Source: a bacterium
GTDB taxonomy: Bacteria > DRYD01
Reading direction: 5' to 3'
Length of the DNA: 64,000 nt
Assembly: GCA_039630415.1 (NCBI GenBank)
Contig: JBCNVB010000026.1
Location: 15,341-79,340 of the forward strand
A program made the translations under genes and the position numbers. Below, piece by piece: positions 9,082 to 23,191 of this stretch. The notes below the pieces were generated by a model. That model was not told where the DNA came from, did no database searches, and saw nothing but the letters and a program-made list of their open reading frames with translations. The number at the start of each line of letters is the position of its first letter. Position 1 is the stretch's first letter.

Positions 9082-9993
9082 TCAAGAAGTTTTGATCAAT
9101 ATAAAGTCGTGATTTTTTACTATGTATGATTTGCCAAAGGATTTAAATGGTAGTGTTTTTATATCCTGAATTTCATCTACGTTGAATACTTCAGCTTGGA
9201 TGAATTTTTGAGCTATTTCTGTATGTATTTTTTCACTAGCCTTATGTACATTCGTATTTGTAGGTATAAGATATTGTCTGGCTTCTCTATTGTTAGCAGT
9301 GTAAAATATGGTCCAATAATTCAAGACAGTCTCTTTTATCAGGTTCACTAATAGTTCTACTTTTTGCATTATATTGCCATCAACATCGTACAATTTTAGG
9401 AAATCGTCTAATTCTTGCTGAGGAATATCAAGTAACTCACTGTATAGCGATAAAGGATATTTTACAATAGTTTTGGATATATCTTCTATTTCTTCATCAA
9501 TTATAATGAGATGACTTTTGATTGATAAAAGACTTAGCTGGGTTATTACTTCTTTGTATTGATAGTTTATTCGTGCTAGTTGATGGGTATCTAAGTTAGG
9601 ATAATTGTCAATATGTAATTGTAGTTCACTAAGGATACTTCTTAGAGAAGGATTTTTATTTATCGATTTAGAGTTCAAGTAGTCTTCTATTATTTCTTTA
9701 TCTCTGGTTTTTATTTTTTGTATTTCGGAATTCATTTCTTGCTCAGAGTTAAAGATTAAGATATTAAAATCGCTTGATACCATTTCCCTTATTGGTTCAT
9801 TCAGCTTTGTATAGAAGGTAATTGTTTCATAGGTAACTTTTTGTGGTTTAAAGATTTCTAGGACTTTTTGAAATTGTTTGGTTTCAAGGTTTATTGTTAT
9901 GGTGGATGTATTTGGTTTATAAGGTTTTTTGAGATAGAACGATATTAGTTTATAAAAGTGGTGTTTGTGGGTATGGACAAAGATTTTGAGCAT
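9082..9993 (-). CDS. Degenerate YchF/Obg-like protein with C-terminal TGS domain, lacking a P-loop
   Basis: C-terminus FYTANNREARQY...KIHTEIAQKFIQAEV...GKSYIVKNHDFI matches the YchF TGS domain. IFKPQKVTYETITF matches the YchF G-domain segment. Confidence 0.7.
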   Translation of the reverse strand: MLKIFVHTHKHHFYKLISFYLKKPYKPNTSTITINLETKQFQKVLEIFKPQKVTYETITFYTKLNEPIREMVSSDFNILIFNSEQEMNSEIQKIKTRDKEIIEDYLNSKSINKNPSLRSILSELQLHIDNYPNLDTHQLARINYQYKEVITQLSLLSIKSHLIIIDEEIEDISKTIVKYPLSLYSELLDIPQQELDDFLKLYDVDGNIMQKVELLVNLIKETVLNYWTIFYTANNREARQYLIPTNTNVHKASEKIHTEIAQKFIQAEVFNVDEIQDIKTLPFKSFGKSYIVKNHDFILIKTS

Positions 9994-9995
9994 AG

Positions 9996-11981
9996 TTATC
10001 CAAAGATCATGATTGCGAATGCTTTAGTCCAGTAATTGAGTGCCTTTGCGAAGTCTTTATTTTGGAAGTATACTACTGCTATATTGAAGTATGAGGGCCA
10101 AAAATAGGGGTTAAGTTCTATAACTCTTTCCCATTCCATTAGGGCCAGTTTGTATTTTCCTTGTACGTAGTATGCTTCTCCTAGATTATGATGTGCTTGC
10201 CAGTGTTTCCTGTTTAAGGTTGTTACCTTTTGCCAACTTTTTATTGCTGTTTCTACGTCCCCCAACTCGAAATAGCTAACGTTTCCGATGTTCCAGTGAG
10301 CTTGCCAAAAATCAGGGTTATATAAAACTGTCCTTTTCCAATTCTCTAAAGCTTGCTCTATATTGCCTTGAATATAGTATACATTTGCCATGTTAAAGTA
10401 GGCTTTCCAGAAAGAAGGTTTTAAACTTACACATTTGTTCCAATATTCTAGTGCTGTATAAAAATCAGAATTGTTGAAATATATATTCCCCACATAGAAA
10501 TATGCTTCAGCAAAGTTGGGATTTATTTGTATACACTTATCTAGGTATTCAATTGCTTTTTCTATATCGTTTATCTCTAAGTAGTACATACCTAAACTGT
10601 AGTAAGCCATTACGAAATTTGGGTCTAGTTCTATTACTTTTTGCCAGTAATGGATAGCTTCATCTACTCTATCTTGGGAGAAATAGGCATTAGCGAGGTT
10701 GTACATAGCTTCGATTAGGTTAGGATTTATAACTAATGCTTTTTGCCAGTTTTCTATTGCTTCTTCGGTAAATCCTCTTTTGTACAGAGCATTAGCTAAG
10801 TTATGGTATCCCGCTGCGAATTTGGGATTTAACATTACTACTTTTCTATAGTGAATTATTGATTTATCTATTTCTCCTACTCTGTATAGTGCTGATGCTA
10901 GGTTGTAGTGAGCTACGAAGTTAGCTGGGCTTAATTCTACTGCTTTCGTATACTCTTTGAGAGCTTCATCTATTTTGTGTAACCCATCGTATGCTGTTCC
11001 TAAGTTGTTATGTATAAGTGGGTTGTATGGATCATATTCAGTTGCTTTCTGCCATTCGAGAATAGCTAACTCTAGATTACCTTGTTTAAAGTAGTTTGTT
11101 CCCAAAGTGTTGTGCATTACTGCTTTACTTGGTGAAGTGGTGTATTTTTTTGACTCTTTTTTTATTGAGTAGAGATTGTCAATAATTTCTCTAAAACTTT
11201 CGGGTCTATTTTCTGGTTCTTTGGATAGGCATTTATCGATTATGGAGGATAGCAGTGGATTTATTGAAGGGATAATTTTTATAAGGCTTTTGTGTTGTTC
11301 TTTAACAATAGCTTCTAGGGTTTGGGTAACACTTTCTTTTTGGAAGGGATTTTGTCCGGTTAGAAAGTGGTAAAAGACAAGTGCCCAAGAGAAGATATCA
11401 GCTTTTTTTGATACATTGTCAGGGGATTTTATCTGTTCAGGAGCCCAAAATATTGATTTATCTGAAAATTGCTTACTTTGAAATAAAAAACTACTATCCA
11501 AATATCCAAATGCTATGTTTAAAATTTTTATATTTTCTGTGTTATCTCCAAGTAGTACTATATTTTTGGGTTTAAGGTCTTTATGAACTATGTTGTATTC
11601 GTGGATGTACTGTAGTATTTCTGCTATTTTTGTGAATAGGTCAATAAGTTTGTTTATATCTGCTTCAGAAGGGTTAAGGTTGGGTTTAAATATATCTTCG
11701 GCTTTAATTCCTTCAGCTTTTTCCAATGATACAAAATATATTCCTTCTTGCTCTTGAATTTCGAATATTTGGGCTACATTTTTATGCTTTATTTTGGTTG
11801 ATAGTTGTATTTCTTTAAATAGTGTATCTCTTTTTTGGTCATTTTCTAGTAAGAATGGACTTAGTATTCTTAGGTATACTTCTCTGTCTATGATAGGGTC
11901 AAATGCTAAATATATTTGTCCTAATGGTGTAGAATCTATTTCTTCTTTTAGTTGGTATCTTCCTATTGTGGAAAAAGCCAT
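9996..11981 (-). CDS. Hanks-type kinase-like domain (probable pseudokinase) fused to 11 TPR repeats
   Basis: HKDLKPKNI, WAPEQ, KADIFS, FLTGQNPF, KCLSKEPENRP, then 11 countable TPR units of about 34 aa. Confidence 0.85.
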   Translation of the reverse strand: MAFSTIGRYQLKEEIDSTPLGQIYLAFDPIIDREVYLRILSPFLLENDQKRDTLFKEIQLSTKIKHKNVAQIFEIQEQEGIYFVSLEKAEGIKAEDIFKPNLNPSEADINKLIDLFTKIAEILQYIHEYNIVHKDLKPKNIVLLGDNTENIKILNIAFGYLDSSFLFQSKQFSDKSIFWAPEQIKSPDNVSKKADIFSWALVFYHFLTGQNPFQKESVTQTLEAIVKEQHKSLIKIIPSINPLLSSIIDKCLSKEPENRPESFREIIDNLYSIKKESKKYTTSPSKAVMHNTLGTNYFKQGNLELAILEWQKATEYDPYNPLIHNNLGTAYDGLHKIDEALKEYTKAVELSPANFVAHYNLASALYRVGEIDKSIIHYRKVVMLNPKFAAGYHNLANALYKRGFTEEAIENWQKALVINPNLIEAMYNLANAYFSQDRVDEAIHYWQKVIELDPNFVMAYYSLGMYYLEINDIEKAIEYLDKCIQINPNFAEAYFYVGNIYFNNSDFYTALEYWNKCVSLKPSFWKAYFNMANVYYIQGNIEQALENWKRTVLYNPDFWQAHWNIGNVSYFELGDVETAIKSWQKVTTLNRKHWQAHHNLGEAYYVQGKYKLALMEWERVIELNPYFWPSYFNIAVVYFQNKDFAKALNYWTKAFAIMIFG

Positions 11982-15860: not shown

Positions 15861-17690
15861 TTGAAAAAAAGTGAGGTTAATTGGACTATGAATAAGATAA
15901 ATAGTGAATTAATATTTAACTTGTATATAAAATCAATAAACAAAAACTACAATATTCCAATTGAACAAGCTCTGCAAATAAAAGATACCGTAAATGTTGT
16001 AAATACAATTGATCCATTTGATACGTCTCAGTATCAGATACTTACGAGTTTATTAGGATCAAGGTTGGTTCCTGATTTTGAATATTTATTTGTAACAGGT
16101 TTGTATTTTTCGCTAATGTCTACGATAGGTGGTGTAGCATATATACCTAAAGATTATATTCAACAGATAGCAAGTTTAATGTCATCAACTAAGGATCCGT
16201 TAAAAAAATTTCTTTTTGATGAAAAGAATAAATTCTTCATAGAGAAGCCTTTAAGTGTATTTTCTACAACTACTCCTAGTAAGGTGTTTGAATTTTTAGG
16301 TAATAATTTTGTAGGTCAAGCACCATTCGTTGTTAAACCAGATCAACTACCAGATAGTGAAAAATTACTTGAATTATTAACTCGATCTCAACAAATAAAT
16401 TTAGCTTTAAGTAAAACTCCTTTCCTAACTGAAATCTTAAAAAAAGAGATAATTAGTTTTCTTAACGAATTTTCTGGTTACTTCAGTAAGTCAGGTTATC
16501 TAAAGAGATTGATAGAAATCACGGAAAATAACTATATGACTAGAAATAATATAAACATTTGGAAAAAGCTGATAGAAAGCGCAATAAGTGTACTATCTTT
16601 TGTTAGTGAATTTACTAAACCTATTCAAATTAAGTCAGAAAAGGAATTAAAGGATTATTTTGGTTATTTAAATCTTCTGAATTGGGTTCAAAAGAATCCA
16701 CATCAATTCTATCAAATTCAGCAGAATATAAAAGACGAACGATTTGCAAAACTTATTAGCAATTTCGTATCTAATGGTTACAACTTGTATTCCAATCGTG
16801 AAGAGCTAATAAAAACTGCTTGTAATAGTCTTTACTCTATAATAGTTGGCATAGTAGCTAGTCACTTTAAGAAAGCTATAAAGTCTGGGGATTTGAAAAA
16901 TGGTGATGGATTTTATTTTCTACAACTTTACACTCTTTCCTCAGCTTTGATAGATATGATAAACAATGGAAAAACCAATACCACACAGTTTTATAACATA
17001 AAATATAATCTAAAAAGTATGATGATTTCTAAAAGTTATCTTTTCCCGCTTGTACAGATATTGGATAGTAATGATAACTCGGTAGTAATTTCTGCTTTAG
17101 AGGTAATAAGGAGAATAGGTCAGAAAGTAGCTCCGTGGGTGATACAAAAAAGTCCAAATATGCCAAAAGATAAATCGTTCTGGCTCAGATTGAATCTATG
17201 GACTAAAATCTACCAATCTCTTGATAAAAATGATCCTAACTATCAACAATACAGAAACTACATGATTAAAAAATTAAGAAGTATTCTAAACTCTTACTCT
17301 GATGCTGTGAAGTTAAATTCATTCCTTAACAACTTTATCATCAATCAGGAAAGCTTTGATATAGTTGTAAAGAATTTAGACAGCATGCTAAATACAATAG
17401 GTGGATATCCAATCGCAAGTACATACGAAAATCCAGATTATCTCTTCTCACAAGTGGTAAGACTTAATTTCTTGACTAATCAAAATGCAAATCAAAGCAA
17501 TATAAAATACAAAAAGGATATGATACATAATGAATTCATAAATAAGATAATGCATAGGGAACCTATTTTAAGTAAATTAGTCACAGACTATAATGAATAT
17601 AATTTGAACTTGCGAAATAATCCTAATTTGAAAGATAATCTATACAAAGTTATACAAAACTACTATCAAGCAAGTATGCATTACCTGTAA
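15861..17690 (+). CDS. Hypothetical protein (Asn/Lys-rich, probably helical)
   Basis: 609-aa ORF with no recognisable motif; alternative start ATG 15888. Confidence 0.55.
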   Translation: MKKSEVNWTMNKINSELIFNLYIKSINKNYNIPIEQALQIKDTVNVVNTIDPFDTSQYQILTSLLGSRLVPDFEYLFVTGLYFSLMSTIGGVAYIPKDYIQQIASLMSSTKDPLKKFLFDEKNKFFIEKPLSVFSTTTPSKVFEFLGNNFVGQAPFVVKPDQLPDSEKLLELLTRSQQINLALSKTPFLTEILKKEIISFLNEFSGYFSKSGYLKRLIEITENNYMTRNNINIWKKLIESAISVLSFVSEFTKPIQIKSEKELKDYFGYLNLLNWVQKNPHQFYQIQQNIKDERFAKLISNFVSNGYNLYSNREELIKTACNSLYSIIVGIVASHFKKAIKSGDLKNGDGFYFLQLYTLSSALIDMINNGKTNTTQFYNIKYNLKSMMISKSYLFPLVQILDSNDNSVVISALEVIRRIGQKVAPWVIQKSPNMPKDKSFWLRLNLWTKIYQSLDKNDPNYQQYRNYMIKKLRSILNSYSDAVKLNSFLNNFIINQESFDIVVKNLDSMLNTIGGYPIASTYENPDYLFSQVVRLNFLTNQNANQSNIKYKKDMIHNEFINKIMHREPILSKLVTDYNEYNLNLRNNPNLKDNLYKVIQNYYQASMHYL

Positions 17691-17771
17691 AGGCTTTTTT
17701 GAAAAGGGATTATACATTTTCTGAAGAAAGTATTTGATAGAGAATGCTACAGTCAGAAAGGAGATTTTTAA

Positions 17772-19145
17772 ATGAAAAATGAAGTTTTTAGGTTTATCAA
17801 TTTTACAATAAAAATCCTTGTCTTTTACTTTATAGTTTCTTTTGCTCTAGTAATTTTGTTACTACCGATATACATTTTGTTGGATAAAGTCGGTATTATT
17901 TCAATGTTTAACTCAATTGTAGGTGTAAATGGTGGTATTTGGAAAAATTTTGGTACAATAGGTTATTTTATAGGCTTGTCGGTTGTTGCTTCGTTGATAA
18001 TTTTAACTGTTTTAATGTTGAGTGTAATAATAGATGTTTGGATAGAGCGGAAGTTATCAGCAAAGATACAGGGTCGTATGGGACCTACTTTGGTAAACTT
18101 GCCATTCTTACTAAAGCCAGGATACAAAAACATATGGCTTGGAGGAATAATACAACCAATAGCTGATGTGGTCAAGCTTCTTCAAAAGGAAATAATGATT
18201 CCACAAGGATCTTATCCATTTCTATATGTTTTATCACCAATACTAGCTTTTTGTACTGTAGTAATAGCTTTTGGGATGTTCCCGTTTTCAAATAATTACA
18301 TAATACTGGGTGGTTTAGATATTGGATTATTGTTTATTTTTGCTGTGTCAAGCTATATGGTTTTGTCCTTAGTAATAGCTGCTTGGGCTTCTAATAACAA
18401 ATACTCACTCTTAGGAGGACTTAGAACTGTAGCACAAATGTTAAGTTATGAAATACCTCTACTGTTATCTTTCTTATCTGTTATGATTTTTACGGGAAGC
18501 TTTAAAATAGTGGATATAGTTAATTTTCAGAATCAATATTTTTGGTTAATTTTGTATCAACCACTGATGTTTATAATATTCCTTTGGTCGATGGTAGCTG
18601 AGAATAATAGAGCTCCATTTGATTTACCCGAAGCTGAGTCGGAGCTTGTAGCAGGATTCGTCACTGAATACAGTAGTATGGTGTTTGCTCTATTTTATTT
18701 AGCAGAGTATGGATATCTATTTTTTAATAGTGCAATAATAGCAACCATATTTTTAGGGGGATACTCTCTTATTCCACATTCAATTCTGAATCTTTTTGCA
18801 CCCATACTTACAAAGCTAGGTATATACCAATATATTTTGGCTGTTAATGATAACTTTATATGGATAATCTTAAAAACATTCTTAATCGTTGGGTTGATTA
18901 TGTTCTTTAGATGGACTTATCCGAGGATAAGAATAGATCACTTAATGGACCTAGCTTGGAAAGGATTTATACCAATAACCCTGTTTCATATAATTGTAGC
19001 ATCTGTTGATGTACTACTATTTAAATCCAATAGCTGGTTTATACCTGTACTTTGTTGGATAACATTTATCGTAGTTCTCTATTTAGCTTCAATTAAAAAT
19101 CTCAGATTGTCAAGTAAATATAAAAATATACCCAAGTATGCATAG
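17772..19145 (+). CDS. nuoH: NADH-quinone oxidoreductase subunit H, with terminal extensions
   Basis: WIERKLSAKIQGRMGP, GIIQPIADVVKLLQKE, WASNNKYSLLGGLR, AQMLSYE, ENNRAPFDLPEAESELVAGFVTEYS, RWTYPRIRIDHL. Confidence 0.95.
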   Translation: MKNEVFRFINFTIKILVFYFIVSFALVILLLPIYILLDKVGIISMFNSIVGVNGGIWKNFGTIGYFIGLSVVASLIILTVLMLSVIIDVWIERKLSAKIQGRMGPTLVNLPFLLKPGYKNIWLGGIIQPIADVVKLLQKEIMIPQGSYPFLYVLSPILAFCTVVIAFGMFPFSNNYIILGGLDIGLLFIFAVSSYMVLSLVIAAWASNNKYSLLGGLRTVAQMLSYEIPLLLSFLSVMIFTGSFKIVDIVNFQNQYFWLILYQPLMFIIFLWSMVAENNRAPFDLPEAESELVAGFVTEYSSMVFALFYLAEYGYLFFNSAIIATIFLGGYSLIPHSILNLFAPILTKLGIYQYILAVNDNFIWIILKTFLIVGLIMFFRWTYPRIRIDHLMDLAWKGFIPITLFHIIVASVDVLLFKSNSWFIPVLCWITFIVVLYLASIKNLRLSSKYKNIPKYA

Positions 19146-19177
19146 AATGTATGTTTATTGTGGGGGAAGGATGATAA

Positions 19178-20842
19178 TTGATGATAGGAACTTTGAATTT
19201 CCTAGCTGATTCTCTTCGAAGGCTCATAGAAGGGCTTAATATAACCTATAAGTACTTTCTAAAGGAACCGATATATACTGTAAACTATCCCATAACTATA
19301 AAAGAGCCTTTTGCAAGATGGAGGGGGAAGGTAAGAGTAAGAGCATTTAATACCAAAGAAACTATATACAAAAGAACCAATTTCTTAAATTATTCATTCA
19401 ATTTACCCCCATGTGTTAGAGGATGTCCTGCTAATGTGGATGCAAGAGGATATGTTATGTTAGCTGGTGAAAAGAATTTTCTAAAATCCCTCAATGAAGA
19501 AGTAGTAAATAACCCAATAGCTTTCTGCTTTGGGAATTTGTGTACAGCTCCATGTGAAACAACATGTAGTAGGGGAGTACAAGACCATAAACCCATAGCT
19601 ATAAGATTAATAAAGAAAGCCATAAGTGAGTATAACATATTAAGTCAGTATAAACAAGATAAGACAGTAAAATATACGGTTGTTTGTGAACCTAGTAATA
19701 AAAGGATTGCTGTAATAGGTGCAGGACCTGCTGGAATAGCAGCAGCGCACAGACTCCTAAGATATGGCCACAACGTTGATGTTTTCGAAAAATATAACTT
19801 CTGTGGAGGTTATCTATACTCTGGAGTAGCATTTTTCAGATTAGATAAAGACCTTATGAATAAAGAATATGAAAATCTGGTAACCTTTACACCAAACGGA
19901 AGAATATTTTACAATGTTACTGTAATCTCTGAAGAGGAAAAAGAAAAGTATTCTAGGGTAATTACGGTTGATGATATAAAAGAAGCGAAAGAACAAATTA
20001 ATCACTTAGAACCATGTGCTATTAGTTTCAGTGATTTGGAAAATAACTATGACGTTGTCATAATAGCAGCTGGAGCAACTAAACCTAGAAAACTCAACCT
20101 AAAAAATGCTGAAAAAGTAAACCTAATTCAAGCAGAATGGTTCTTGGAAGATTGGAATATGGGAATAAGAAGCTATAAAGTAGGAAAAGAAGTGGTAGTA
20201 ATAGGAGGAGGAGGAACGGGAATAGACGCAGCTAGAACATGTAAAAAAGTATTTGCGGATAAGGTAAAAATAGTAGATATACTTGCTAGAGAGGATATAC
20301 CAGTAAGTGAAGAAGAAAAAGTAGAAGCTGAGGAAGATGATGATATAGAATTCATATGCCAGGTTATGCCTTTTGAAGTAGTGGTTGATGAAAATAATCA
20401 AATAAAGGGTTTAAAAGTTGCTAAATGTGTCTATGGACCAACTCTACCAAATGGAAGAAAAAAGATCATTAGAACTAACGAAGAATTTGTAATACCATGT
20501 GATACAATAATCCTAGCAGTTTCCAGAGATATAGAAATACCTTTTGCTCCAAAAGATATAGTAGGGCCAAGAGGAGAGATAGTAGTTGATGGATTTGATA
20601 CTATGGTAAATGGATTTGTTTATAGATTCGGTCAAACAAAAAGAGAGAAAGTATTTGCTGCTGGGGAAGCATGTTATGGTCCTCAACCTGCTATAGTAGC
20701 TGTTGCTAGTGGTAATAGAACAGCTGAAAGAGTCCATTATTACTTAACTAATTCTTTTCCACCTATACTAAGTAATGATTTTGTAAATATTTTGGGTCCT
20801 TTGAATGTACATAAGGTATATCAAAAGGCTGTTTCGTTTTAA
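19178..20842 (+). CDS. NuoI N-terminal segment fused to GltD/DsrL-like FAD-dependent Fe-S oxidoreductase
   Basis: NuoI-like GLNITYKYFLK...TVNYP...RWRG, then PPCVRGCP, CTAPCETTC, FAD motif VIGAGPAG, second nucleotide motif VIGGGGTGIDAAR, and VFAAGE. Confidence 0.8.
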   Translation: MMIGTLNFLADSLRRLIEGLNITYKYFLKEPIYTVNYPITIKEPFARWRGKVRVRAFNTKETIYKRTNFLNYSFNLPPCVRGCPANVDARGYVMLAGEKNFLKSLNEEVVNNPIAFCFGNLCTAPCETTCSRGVQDHKPIAIRLIKKAISEYNILSQYKQDKTVKYTVVCEPSNKRIAVIGAGPAGIAAAHRLLRYGHNVDVFEKYNFCGGYLYSGVAFFRLDKDLMNKEYENLVTFTPNGRIFYNVTVISEEEKEKYSRVITVDDIKEAKEQINHLEPCAISFSDLENNYDVVIIAAGATKPRKLNLKNAEKVNLIQAEWFLEDWNMGIRSYKVGKEVVVIGGGGTGIDAARTCKKVFADKVKIVDILAREDIPVSEEEKVEAEEDDDIEFICQVMPFEVVVDENNQIKGLKVAKCVYGPTLPNGRKKIIRTNEEFVIPCDTIILAVSRDIEIPFAPKDIVGPRGEIVVDGFDTMVNGFVYRFGQTKREKVFAAGEACYGPQPAIVAVASGNRTAERVHYYLTNSFPPILSNDFVNILGPLNVHKVYQKAVSF

Positions 20843-20867
20843 ATGTGGCTGGGAGTAGGAGGAAAAT

Positions 20868-21254
20868 ATGGCTAAAATACCAGAGTATGTAAGGCAGGCA
20901 GTGGATATAAATGAATATAGCATAGAAGAGGGTATAAGGTGTTTGAGTTGTGAGAGCGGAGTTTGTATAGCTTGTGGATACTGTGCACAAATATGTCCAG
21001 TAAAAGCAATAAGAATGGAGGTATTACAGGACGATCTTGGAAGAACAATAGTGGAAAAATTTGAAATAAACGTAAGTGCATGTATATTTTGTGGGCTATG
21101 TGAACAAATATGTCCCACCAAAGTTATAGAAATGGAAAATACCTATGAATTTGCTGTTTATAACCAACAGGATGTTGTAAGAATGGATGAATACTTTGAA
21201 TACGATGAAAAAAAATCCTTCGATAAAAGAATAATTGTTAAAAACAAGAAATAA
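20868..21254 (+). CDS. nuoI: 2x[4Fe-4S] protein corresponding to the NuoI ferredoxin/C-terminal part
   Basis: CIACGYCAQICP, FEINVSACIFCGLCEQICP..IEMENTYEFAVY (NuoI-type tail); own AGGAGG RBS. Confidence 0.7.
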   Translation: MAKIPEYVRQAVDINEYSIEEGIRCLSCESGVCIACGYCAQICPVKAIRMEVLQDDLGRTIVEKFEINVSACIFCGLCEQICPTKVIEMENTYEFAVYNQQDVVRMDEYFEYDEKKSFDKRIIVKNKK

Positions 21255-21258
21255 TAGA

Positions 21259-21981
21259 ATGCCAAGAAAAAAAGTAACCAAGAATATTAGAAGAATCACC
21301 GAAAAAAGCGTTGACAAAGAAATAGGAGAGGGAATTTTCTCAGCTAATCAATTGGAACAGCAAAAAGATGAAGAATTAGTAGAACTTGCAAAACAAGGAA
21401 ATTTAGAGGCTAAAAAGATTCTAATACAAAGATATTCAAAATTCCTGTTTTCCAAAGTGATACCTTTTTACATACCTGGTGGAGAGAGAGAGGATATAAT
21501 ACAGGAAGCATACATTGGCTTTTTGAAAGCTATAGAAGATTTTGATAAAAATAAAGGTAGTTTTTTCAACTTTGTAAATATATGTGTACAAAGACAGATA
21601 ACTACTGCAATAAAATCATCAAATAGAAATAAATCAAAAGTATTAAGGAATCCTATATCTCTTGAATCTAGCATTTTTGATGAGGATTCTGGAGAGAAGA
21701 GTCTTTATGATTATATTATGCCGTCAAAAATTATTCAAGGATCTTATCAGGAAATCTCTATTGAGGATGCCATTATAGATTTCATAGAAAAAAATCAAAT
21801 AAAAGAAACTCTATTATCAAGGCTAACTCCAAAAGAAAAAGAAATTTTGAAGTTAAGGTCTCAGGGATTAACATACCAGGAAATAGCAAACAAAATGAAT
21901 ATTTCCTCTAAATCAGTTGATAATGCTTTACAAAGAATAAGAAAGAAAATAAAAAACTTAATAGATAACATGGAGGTATAG
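21259..21981 (+). CDS. sigH: RNA polymerase sigma factor, SigH (Spo0H)-like
   Basis: GGEREDIIQEAYIGFLKAIEDF, CVQRQITTAIKSSNRNK, KSVDNALQRIRKK, close to the Bacillota SigH pattern. Start taken at ATG 21259. Confidence 0.8.
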   Translation: MPRKKVTKNIRRITEKSVDKEIGEGIFSANQLEQQKDEELVELAKQGNLEAKKILIQRYSKFLFSKVIPFYIPGGEREDIIQEAYIGFLKAIEDFDKNKGSFFNFVNICVQRQITTAIKSSNRNKSKVLRNPISLESSIFDEDSGEKSLYDYIMPSKIIQGSYQEISIEDAIIDFIEKNQIKETLLSRLTPKEKEILKLRSQGLTYQEIANKMNISSKSVDNALQRIRKKIKNLIDNMEV

Positions 21982-21982
21982 T

Positions 21983-23191
21983 ATGCAGGTATTTCCTTAT
22001 ACAGAGGAATCTATACAAAAGGCTAAAGAGTATTTCAAGGATTTAATTATCGAACAATTCAAGAGGATAGAAAAAATAAAGGAGAATAGAGAAATAACTG
22101 ACTTTACTACTTTAAGGCCTATAAAGATAGGCTTTATTGGTGGAGATGGTATTGGCCCCTATATTGTAAAAGAGGCTAGAAGAATTTTAGAAATACTTCT
22201 AAAGGATGAATTAGAAAGAAAAGAAATAATTTTTGAAGATATTGAAGGGTTAACTATTGAAAGAAGAATAGAGGTTGGAAAACCAGTACCTGATGATGTG
22301 ATGCAGAAGATACTTGAATGTAACGCACTTTTGAAGGGACCAACGACAACTCCAAAGGCTGGTGAGGGTGTTCCTAACATAGAAAGTGCTAACGTATACC
22401 TGAGAAAAGTGCTTGATTTATTCGCAAATGTAAGACCAATAAGTATACCTAATGAAAATATAAACTGGGTCTTTTTTAGGGAAAACACTGAAGATATATA
22501 TACCTTGGGATCTAAGGGTATAGAGTTCGAGAACTACCTCGGTATTGATTTCAGGATAACTAGTTATATTGGAAGCTATAGGATAATAAAAATGGCTTTT
22601 GAATATGCAAGAAAAAACGGATATAACAGAGTAACAGCGGTAAATAAGGCGAATGTCATAAAGACTACCGATGGAATATTTCTTAAAGTTTTTTATGATG
22701 TTGCAAAAGAATATCCAGATATACAAGCAGATGATTGGTTTATAGACATTATGACAGCTAAATTAATTGATAAAAAGAGAAGATCAGAATTTCAAATATT
22801 TGTTTTACCTAATTTATTTGGGGATATACTTACTGATGAGGCTGCTGAAATTCAGGGTGGGGTTGGAACTGCCGGATCAGCTAACATCGGGGCAAATTAT
22901 GCTATGTTTGAAGCTATTCATGGTAGTGCACCCAGAATGGTGCAGGAAAATAGGCAACACTATGCAGATCCATCTAGTATAATTAAAGCTTCTTCTATGC
23001 TTTTAGAATACATAGGTTATAAAACTATTGCTACTAAAATAGATATAGCTCTCAATGTTGCTAGTATTGAAAGGAAGGTAGTTATAACAGGAAGAAATGA
23101 TGGGGCTACTACCAGACAATACGCTGACTACTTACTTTCTCTTATAACTGATCCTTACCTTGAAGAAAAGTACTTTAAATATCTCAAGTAA
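21983..23191 (+). CDS. icd: Isocitrate/isopropylmalate dehydrogenase family; probably isocitrate dehydrogenase
   Basis: GDGIGP, LKGPTTTP, ESANV.LRK.LDLFANVRP, RENTE, KANVIK, PNLFGDILTDEAA, FEAIHGSAP; adjacent to mdh and citrate synthase. Confidence 0.8.
   Translation: MQVFPYTEESIQKAKEYFKDLIIEQFKRIEKIKENREITDFTTLRPIKIGFIGGDGIGPYIVKEARRILEILLKDELERKEIIFEDIEGLTIERRIEVGKPVPDDVMQKILECNALLKGPTTTPKAGEGVPNIESANVYLRKVLDLFANVRPISIPNENINWVFFRENTEDIYTLGSKGIEFENYLGIDFRITSYIGSYRIIKMAFEYARKNGYNRVTAVNKANVIKTTDGIFLKVFYDVAKEYPDIQADDWFIDIMTAKLIDKKRRSEFQIFVLPNLFGDILTDEAAEIQGGVGTAGSANIGANYAMFEAIHGSAPRMVQENRQHYADPSSIIKASSMLLEYIGYKTIATKIDIALNVASIERKVVITGRNDGATTRQYADYLLSLITDPYLEEKYFKYLK

Follow-up and report, generated by a model that had tools for sequence, protein, structure and literature searches.

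A GltD/NfnB-type flavoprotein cassette within a two-piece NuoI of Calescibacterota: a candidate electron entry into complex I

Why would a flavoprotein stand inside the complex I subunit NuoI, and what would it do there? The question is raised by a three-gene unit in a window of 64,000 nucleotides, by which we mean the whole stretch of DNA analysed (contig JBCNVB010000026.1 of assembly GCA_039630415.1). The source genome of the window comprises 1.40 Mb in 31 contigs and is 89% complete, and the closest homologues of the central gene bear the name Candidatus Calescibacterium. The unit includes nuoH and two further open reading frames (ORFs), ORF2 and ORF3, arranged head to tail, all on the + strand. 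The function that we consider most likely, with moderate confidence, is an electron entry based on flavin adenine dinucleotide (FAD), probably specific for NADH, that would be built into a two-piece NuoI. We likewise think it rather probable that ORF2 and ORF3 together are the NuoI of the organism's complex I, with a GltD/NfnB-type cassette placed behind the N-terminal segment and ahead of the first cluster motif. The features of the unit are as follows (aa, amino acids; nt, nucleotides; RBS, ribosome-binding site).

17772..19145, + strand: nuoH, 457 aa, first gene of the three-gene unit; Pfam NADHdh, E 1.9e-99
19178..20842, + strand: ORF2 (nuoI'), 554 aa from TTG 19178; NuoI N-terminal segment and GltD/NfnB-like Fe-S flavoprotein
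19193..19360, + strand: NuoI N-terminal homology, ORF2 aa 6-61, LNFLADSLRRLIEGLNITYKYFLKEPIYTVNYP...RWRGKVRV
19406..19636, + strand: Fer4_20-type Fe-S domain, aa 77-153; Pfam E 5.1e-10, 39.6 bits against a cut-off of 25.8
19703..20713, + strand: FAD- and NAD(P)H-binding double Rossmann module, aa 176-512; Pyr_redox_2 E 2.5e-23, 83.4 bits against a cut-off of 26.1
20189..20296, + strand: second dinucleotide motif, ORF2 aa 338-373, GGGGTG...KVKIVDILARED, with Asp367-Ile-Leu where Tyr-Arg-Arg is expected
20843..20867, + strand: spacer of 25 nt with RBS AGGAGG at 20857-20862, 5 nt ahead of the ORF3 ATG
20868..21254, + strand: ORF3 (nuoI''), 128 aa; RCLSC motif, NuoI 2x[4Fe-4S] domain and C-terminal tail
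20937..20951, + strand: RCLSC motif, ORF3 R24-C25-L-S-C28, the two cysteines which canonical GltD/NfnB carry just before PPCxxxCP
20958..21215, + strand: NuoI ferredoxin core, C33/36/39/43-P and C72/75/78/82-P (N6a/N6b motifs), and YEFAVY tail

Domain anatomy of ORF2 and ORF3

The opening of ORF2 is the N-terminal segment of NuoI. When residues 1-71 alone were compared with PDB sequences, all 17 matches were NuoI/NDUFS8/NdhI chains (best E 0.0013), and all four NCBIfam matches of the N-terminus were NuoI equivalogs (E 0.0014-0.07). A profile of 12 family N-termini retrieved NuoI-type PDB chains at E 9e-9 to 1e-7; 32 of its 36 PDB matches were of the NuoI type and fell on profile positions 5-58, and the other four were Fer4_20-bearing proteins matched at positions 67-110. 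As a control for both NuoI halves we built a hidden Markov model (HMM) from 11 canonical NuoI proteins, against which the ORF2 N-terminus scored 34.8 bits. In the structure model of ORF2, aa 3-28 form a helix, after which aa 29-76 are modelled with low confidence. An alternative start of ORF2, the in-frame ATG at 19181, gives a protein of 553 aa, the length of the database copy.

The rest of NuoI is found in ORF3, whose reading frame differs from that of ORF2. ORF3 matches positions 41-116 of 121 of the NuoI family TIGR01971 with 79 bits and positions 60-143 of 168 of our own NuoI HMM with 80.3 bits, and it matches Escherichia coli NuoI at E 2e-17. On the Arabidopsis NDUFS8 chain 7aqr_I, ORF2 aa 13-61 align to residues 73-120 and ORF3 aligns to residues 118-194, directly after that stretch; the two ORFs thus hold exactly complementary halves of one NuoI. 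In relatives in which both parts are fused, our HMM gave 34-64 bits for the N-terminal half and 48-87 bits for the C-terminal half (65-87 in seven of the eight scored), and one of these fused proteins, P0016, matches TIGR01971 in two stretches about 500 aa apart. In GltD-ferredoxin proteins that have no NuoI N-terminus, the ferredoxin reached 34-37 bits and no N-terminal match was obtained. ORF3 lies far above these values, and is therefore a NuoI half and not merely a GltD-type ferredoxin.

Between the two halves, ORF2 runs on into a cassette in which both Fer4_20 and Pyr_redox_2 score above the Pfam gathering thresholds. The Fer4_20 match covers profile positions 30-108 of 113, so that the first ~29 positions are missing, and includes cysteines 79, 83, 117, 122, 126 and 130, which are conserved across the family. 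The best PDB sequence matches of ORF2 are 8oh5_C, 9bov_A and 9n5u_A, and the top three Foldseek matches of its model (mean predicted local distance difference test, pLDDT, 79.7) are the same chains in the order 9bov_A, 8oh5_C and 9n5u_A, with NfnI-L, Xfn, NfnB, GltD and DPD among the further fold matches below them. The FAD domain also contains a Lys/Glu-rich insert of ~31 aa (19925-20020, aa ~250-280) that is absent from all seven aligned fused homologues; the pLDDT of the model is high around it. An earlier sequence-only reading of this DNA had described ORF 19178 as opening with a NuoI N-terminal signature and continuing into an Fe-S/FAD/NAD oxidoreductase, followed by an ORF with its own RBS that carries RCLSC, the NuoI 2x[4Fe-4S] motifs and the tail. 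The analysis confirms this description.

The Fe-S domain of the cassette has an unusual arrangement. In canonical members of the NfnB and GltD families, RCxxC stands before PxCxxxCP in one chain; here the order is permuted and the motifs are on different polypeptides. A complete one-chain Fer4_20 domain with RCxxC directly before PxCxxxCP was found in neither ORF, since RCLSC is on ORF3 and the remainder on ORF2. The RCLSC motif is invariant in all 10 ORF3 orthologues and aligns with the RCLxC of the fused forms. In NfnB, the ligands are given as C39, C42, C47 and C100 for the distal cluster and C51, C90, C96 and E117 for the proximal cluster (PMC7596348). By homology to NfnB, the distal cluster of the cassette would lie at the seam of ORF2 and ORF3, where C25 and C28 of ORF3 could hold it together with C79 and probably C130 of ORF2. 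The sequence-only reading had concluded that Fe-S ligation occurs in trans. The division of the Fer4_20 motif halves over two polypeptides stands, and the ligation itself is a reasonable expectation from the alignment rather than a result. Its further statement that RCxxC lies C-terminally in DsrL-like proteins was not borne out, as the description of these enzymes in PMC7596348 places the equivalent ligands in the N-terminal domain; the permuted layout is that of the PRK12771-type subfamily.

The second dinucleotide motif bears on the choice of nucleotide. VKIVDIL (ORF2 aa 363-369) aligns with ...TIIYRRT... of StnC, and YRR is also present in NfnB-type proteins and several relatives. Among five Calescibacterota sequences compared, the YRR position reads DIL in four and DLL in one. 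Most Actinomycetota-type fused forms read L-E there and two read M-L-E and H-V-E; YRR is retained in L050 (Bacillota), L072 (Chloroflexota), L093, P0051 and P0025 as well as in StnC. The YRR of NfnB is reported to bind the 2'-phosphate, and DsrL enzymes with YRR are reported to use only NADP(H), those without it preferring or requiring NAD(H) (PMC7596348). Given this precedent, the replacement of YRR by DIL makes NADH a likelier substrate of the ORF2/ORF3 cassette than NADPH. The same hint had been drawn from VKIVDIL by the sequence-only reading; the motif is confirmed, and the DsrL enzymes supply an experimental precedent.

Conservation of the split and fused homologues in nuo operons

The two-gene layout is conserved. 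In all 10 genomes of the Calescibacterota family studied, which belong to two genera, nuoH is followed by an ORF of 553-587 aa and an ORF of 126-146 aa. The spacers between the two ORFs are 8-53 nt long and vary in length and frame, both ORFs are intact, and ORF3 starts with ATG; a G-rich RBS precedes it in the relatives, except at one locus where the longest-ORF call ran upstream. Eleven further 90%-identity clusters of 551-561 aa are present in public data. In the single sister-family genome (73% complete) only a distant GltD-like protein was found. Could the split be a frameshift, an assembly error or a pseudogene? ORF3 is out of frame with ORF2, and the sole sequencing run that contains the stretch may be the source sample itself, which would suit such an explanation. 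But the same layout, with an RBS and an ATG at ORF3 and varied spacers, recurs in 10 separate assemblies, and the additional clusters have the same length; a split kept throughout the family with its own RBS is not a frameshift. These observations rule out an artefact as the source of the split, and we leave hardly any probability to this explanation.

An independent split at the same linker was found at locus L072 in a metagenome-assembled genome (MAG) of Chloroflexota, with ORFs of 480 aa and 144 aa. The first of them matches Fer4_20 positions 26-108 and the second positions 1-38 (E 3.3e-6), a direct sign of one Fe-S domain divided over two polypeptides. Also at this locus, a 79-aa ORF with a hydrophobic stretch and no Pfam match (9704-9943) lies between nuoH and the split nuoI.

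Fused homologues, for which the sequence-only reading proposed a search, do exist. Outside the phylum, identity to ORF2 is at most 33%, and the proteins, of 620-715 aa, are collinear with ORF2 plus ORF3. The NuoI N-terminal motif, RCxxC and the NuoI tail occur together in one chain in 35 of the best 120 homologues. A profile search of 1.84 billion cluster representatives yielded 39 proteins at E <= 1e-10, of which the full-length ones have 480-696 aa. From 80 loci fetched, we examined the 21 with near-full-length matches. At 17 of these, the gene occupies the nuoI position of a collinear nuoA-B-C-D-H-[I::GltD]-J-K-L-M-N operon; the 17 loci come from Anaerosomatales, Coriobacteriia, other Actinomycetota, Candidatus Geothermocultor and Chloroflexota. 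Two Actinomycetes loci among the 21 have nuo genes nearby in a rearranged order. Locus L093 (Desulfobacteraceae), which gave a 'full-length' match, was rejected because it carries another, Hdr-like protein and no nuo operon; its gene lies beside genes for a CCG-domain Fe-S protein and an MvhD/FlpD-like protein, in an Hdr-like setting.

Homologues of NuoE, NuoF and NuoG were found at none of the 21 loci. A Complex1_51K homologue is present somewhere in 14 of 15 genomes with a fused gene; in all five genomes inspected the best such match was RnfC encoded beside rnfD, not NuoF, with rnfG next to it in all three that were checked. The presence of the fused forms in the nuoI slot of operons that lack nuoEFG strongly supports a built-in electron-input module. 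The current annotation of these genes is only 'FAD-dependent oxidoreductase'. A quick maximum-likelihood tree of 54 cassette sequences needs seven label changes and leaves 24 of 51 inner branches open, and does not decide between one and several origins of the NuoI-borne cassettes. The Calescibacterota have a branch length of 2.49 and a skewed composition in this tree.

Complex I genes and possible partner proteins of the source genome

The source genome encodes all 11 core subunits, A, B, C, D, H, I, J, K, L, M and N, with I as two pieces. NuoB (231 bits against a cut-off of 116) and NuoD (445 against 360) both pass the NCBIfam thresholds; NuoH reaches up to 291 bits with the NCBIfam NuoH equivalogs, under their cut-offs. 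A NuoB and a NuoD of the quinone type and the full set of core genes predict a genuine complex I in this genome. The core genes are dispersed: contig 4 carries nuoA-B, contig 23 nuoC, contig 6 nuoD, contig 8 nuoJ-K and, at a second place, nuoL, and contig 16 nuoM-N. ORF2 follows nuoH, and nuoJK lie on another contig. The complex I genes thus occupy at least seven separate places, flanked by unrelated housekeeping genes, which is unusual for a free-living bacterium. No second nuoI was found in the source genome at its 89% completeness, the next-best TIGR01971 match being a 127-aa ferredoxin. In nine of the 10 family genomes no other nuoI was found either, only the ORF3-type half-match.

Several observations weigh against ORF2 and ORF3 as the electron-accepting NuoI of this complex I. 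As the nuo genes are dispersed, adjacency to nuoH is the only tie of the two ORFs to complex I in the source genome, and that genome is 89% complete. ORF3 (79 bits) and the fused protein P0016 (92.5 bits) both remain under the TIGR01971 cut-off of 113.05. The Pfam Fer4_20 match on ORF3 of the window is insignificant (E 0.5), so that the idea of a shared cluster comes from the alignment only. One fused homologue, that of L050 (Bacillota), has no nuo neighbours within ~9 kb. In a relative, G008 (73% complete), a compact nuoIJKLMN contig carries a further full-length nuoI. Finally, the source genome encodes NuoE-like, NuoF-like and HoxU-like proteins elsewhere; the organism may therefore have an ordinary entry through flavin mononucleotide (FMN), and the role of the cassette might be a different one.

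The G008 contig (C159, locus L134, 137-6438) carries nuoI-J-K-L-M-N whose products are 27-38% identical to the Nuo proteins of the source genome, and its G+C content is 34.5% against ~30%. Because of this low identity and higher G+C content it is probably foreign; it either entered the MAG as a binning contaminant or encodes a second complex I there.

The PRK12771-type proteins (~570-620 aa) show the same order of CxxxCP, flavoprotein, linker, RCxxC and ferredoxin. PRK12771 (NF009410) is the best NCBIfam match of ORF2. On its profile ORF2 falls on the front part and ORF3 on positions 499-564, and the fused P0016 matches in one stretch, 44-561 of 566; all scores (261 bits for ORF2, 466 for P0016, 408 for P0013) are below the cut-off of 516. 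ORF2 and ORF3 might accordingly be a soluble oxidoreductase of this type, unrelated to complex I, whose NuoI-like ends are relics, with a normal nuoI hidden in the unassembled 11% of the genome. The incomplete genome, the PRK12771 match, the isolated fused gene at L050 and the canonical nuoI of G008 would all fit. PRK12771-type proteins differ, however, in having no NuoI N-terminus and a ferredoxin that is weakly NuoI-like (34-37 bits against 65-87 in ORF3 and the fused forms), and an N-terminal match was obtained only in the NuoI-cassette family. The nuoH adjacency in all 10 genomes, the nuoI slot at 17 of the 21 loci with fused forms, the lack of another nuoI in nine of the 10 family genomes and the foreign look of the G008 contig speak against it as well, and we regard a soluble enzyme as very improbable.

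The NuoE-like protein has 140 aa and scores 55 bits against the NCBIfam NuoE cut-off of 142; its best PDB match is 7p5h_C, the gamma subunit HydC of an Fe-hydrogenase, with 9n5u_C (NfnC) second and 9bov_C fifth. The NuoF-like protein has 488 aa with an extra Cys-rich N-terminus and scores 368 bits against the NCBIfam NuoF cut-off of 559. It is closest to 9bov_B (365 bits), 9n5u_B and 8oh5_B (355-365 bits), compared with 280 bits for Thermus Nqo1; in their enzymes, these three chains pair with the large subunits to which ORF2 is most similar. The NuoF-like protein can be aligned with residues 34-517 of 9bov_B (584 aa); it has no cysteine beyond C451 and no C-terminal ferredoxin. The third protein, a HoxU-like short NuoG of 244 aa (244.5 bits against a cut-off of 333), matches the N-terminal 2Fe-2S part of 8oh5_C and 9bov_A. 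All three occur together with ORF2 in the 10 family genomes, which are kin, so that these counts are not independent; with these queries, neither they nor ORF2 were found in the one sister-family genome. Their genes are on other contigs or far apart. Several relatives (G003, G004, G005, G006, G007 and others) have a second, longer NuoF-like gene (open frames of 624-650 aa) and a second NuoG/HydA-like gene (514-585 aa), neither of which was found in the source genome; the extra genes may belong to a Bfu-type enzyme, a formate dehydrogenase or a hydrogenase.

The sequence-only reading had suggested that the flavoprotein replaces or bypasses NuoEFG, and had called for an inventory of nuoA-N, including any second nuoI. 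In this genome no canonical nuoI was found besides the two-piece one, and the 21 fused loci have no NuoE, NuoF or NuoG; but a replacement of NuoEFG is not supported for this organism, in which NuoE-, NuoF- and short NuoG-like proteins are encoded elsewhere in the genome.

A 609-aa ORF directly upstream of nuoH (15861-17690, + strand) matches no Pfam family at E <= 0.01. Downstream, a gene of the sigma-70 family (regions 2 and 4) lies at 21235-21981 on the + strand, and its ORF, which starts with TTG, shares 20 nt with the end of ORF3; an ORF of 230-292 aa follows ORF3 in nine of nine relatives. Judged from its translation only, a 661-aa ORF at 9996-11981 (- strand) has a protein-kinase-like N-terminus followed by a long TPR-like repeat array. 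A scan of 17500-22100 found no terminators, and the promoter-like sites (24, compared with 22.2 +/- 5.7 in shuffles) were uninformative.

Proposed electron path and relation to known systems

The pair resembles NuoI/Nqo9/NDUFS8 (TYKY) in the YP...RWRG N-terminal segment, both CxxCxxCxxxCP motifs, the C-terminal tail and the position of the gene beside nuoH. It differs in being interrupted after ~60 residues by a cassette of ~470 aa, in comprising two polypeptides and in scoring under the TIGR01971 cut-off. The cassette itself shares the Fer4_20 and double-Rossmann fold with NfnB/NfnL, GltD, the N-terminal module of DPD, and DsrL. Its best sequence and fold matches are StnC of Sporomusa ovata StnABC (8oh5) and the large subunits of Bfu-type NfnABC (9bov, 9n5u). 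StnC is described as having a cassette inserted in a NuoG-type domain, through which electrons pass from NADPH and FAD via two [4Fe-4S] clusters to the chain of the host (PMC10482914). The insertion of the cassette in an Fe-S host domain is thus common to both, on this description of StnC (PMC10482914). In contrast to StnC, the host is here the NuoI of a membrane complex and not the NuoG-type part of a soluble enzyme, DIL stands in place of YRR (NADPH), and the possible partners are dispersed where the stn genes are adjacent. The B subunits of Bfu-type enzymes, moreover, have a C-terminal 2x[4Fe-4S] ferredoxin domain that is absent from the NuoF-like protein.

By analogy with these enzymes, the cassette would bind FAD and two [4Fe-4S] clusters and would have a site for NAD(P)H. 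In Calescibacterota the gene appears to be cut in the linker behind the cassette, so that the two polypeptides would have to reassemble. We propose that NADH, rather than NADPH, reduces the FAD of the cassette, that electrons would then pass over its proximal and distal [4Fe-4S] clusters to N6a/N6b of NuoI, and that from there they would reach N2 in NuoB and finally quinone. The cassette may be an added site, or it may be part of a larger head similar to Stn or Nfn.

The matches of the NuoF-like protein to partner subunits and the co-occurrence of the proteins in all 10 genomes are the motive for considering such a dispersed Stn/Nfn-like head. ORF2/ORF3 and the NuoE-, NuoF- and HoxU-like proteins would then form an Stn/NfnABC-like module on complex I with FMN and FAD sites, a chimeric head of five separately encoded pieces (NuoE-like, Bfu-type NuoF-like, HoxU-like, NuoI'-GltD and NuoI'') that is attached to the proton pump via the split NuoI. 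Rather than one new input, it could provide electrons from two nucleotide pools, or a transhydrogenase-like exchange between the pools. Consistent with this, the NuoF-like protein is most similar to B subunits that belong to the same enzymes as the large subunits closest to ORF2, two of the five best matches of the NuoE-like protein are small subunits of Nfn-Bfu, the HoxU-like protein corresponds to the 2Fe-2S part of the same large subunits, and the NuoF-like and NuoE-like proteins fail the NCBIfam cut-offs for NuoF and NuoE. But the partner genes are linked neither to one another nor to nuoH-I'-I'', the NuoF-like protein has no C-terminal ferredoxin domain, and with DIL for YRR the nucleotide bound by the cassette may be no different from that of NuoF. 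It is equally conceivable that the three proteins form a plain N-module or are parts of another enzyme, and close relatives have further NuoF-like and NuoG-like paralogues. We therefore offer this head tentatively, as an unlikely though substantial possibility. If true, one Fe-S chain would contain two flavin sites (FMN and FAD) and one [4Fe-4S] cluster jointly ligated by two polypeptides; the head could accept electrons from two nucleotide pools or link nucleotide exchange with the pumping of protons, and it would illustrate the evolutionary swapping of input modules onto a 'headless' complex I.

The direction of flow could also be opposite to that of the proposed NADH entry. A GltD-related flavoprotein that substitutes for NuoI has been described in Mbx-like operons of Thermotoga and some proteobacteria, and was read as a site of NAD(P)+ reduction (Degli Esposti 2015, PMC4758237). 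As described there, a GltD-type flavoprotein likewise takes the place expected for the NuoI homologue in an operon related to complex I (PMC4758237). The present case differs, in a comparison made by description only, in having a complex I with equivalog-level NuoD and NuoB, in retaining both NuoI halves and in the split of the gene (PMC4758237). The cassette could accordingly serve as an outlet, at which electrons from quinol (reverse flow driven by the proton-motive force) or from a ferredoxin docked to NuoI reduce NAD(P)+. Besides the interpretation given for the Mbx-like subunit (PMC4758237), it would agree with this that GltD/NfnB modules are reversible and that one DsrL is reported to be biased to NAD+ reduction (PMC7596348), and that many carriers of the fused gene are anaerobes that also have Rnf. 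The direction of electron flow is illegible from sequence. In published genome analyses, Calescibacterium is described as a heterotroph that lives aerobically and has haem-copper oxidases and the tricarboxylic acid (TCA) cycle (PMC4791363, PMC11696919), and candidates for isocitrate dehydrogenase, malate dehydrogenase and citrate synthase are encoded within the window. An aerobic lifestyle with a TCA cycle requires the oxidation of NADH (no search was made for another complete NADH:quinone route). An outlet thus appears improbable in this organism, and we retain the NADH-oxidising entry as the preferred function.

Complex I in Calescibacterium genomes has been scored as 'nearly complete' in one of these analyses (PMC4791363). 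What the window adds is the conserved two-gene split of NuoI in Calescibacterota, together with the dispersed nuo genes and the co-occurring Bfu-type proteins. In the literature searched, outside subscription journals and supplements, no description of a GltD cassette inside the NuoI of a complex I was found, the nearest being the Mbx-like operons reported in 2015.

The wider meaning concerns the source of electrons for complex I without NuoEFG. The first cultured Anaerosomatales are described as having nuoNMLKJIHDCBA without NuoEFG, with ferredoxin suggested as the donor (PMC9686372), and a 2024 study of the 11-subunit complex I reports that no common electron donor was found (PMC11238625). 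A flavoprotein borne on NuoI would be a concrete and testable answer to the donor question for the 11-subunit 'headless' complex I of several lineages. It predicts a site for NAD(P)H, based on FAD, at a distance of about two clusters from N6a/N6b, with a nucleotide preference legible at the YRR position. The co-occurrence with Bfu-type NuoE-, NuoF- and HoxU-like proteins is a hint that modules have been exchanged between soluble transhydrogenases and complex I. The Calescibacterota version, which occurs in an aerobic hyperthermophile of hot springs, indicates that such a subunit can withstand division into two proteins, between which a cluster probably lies.

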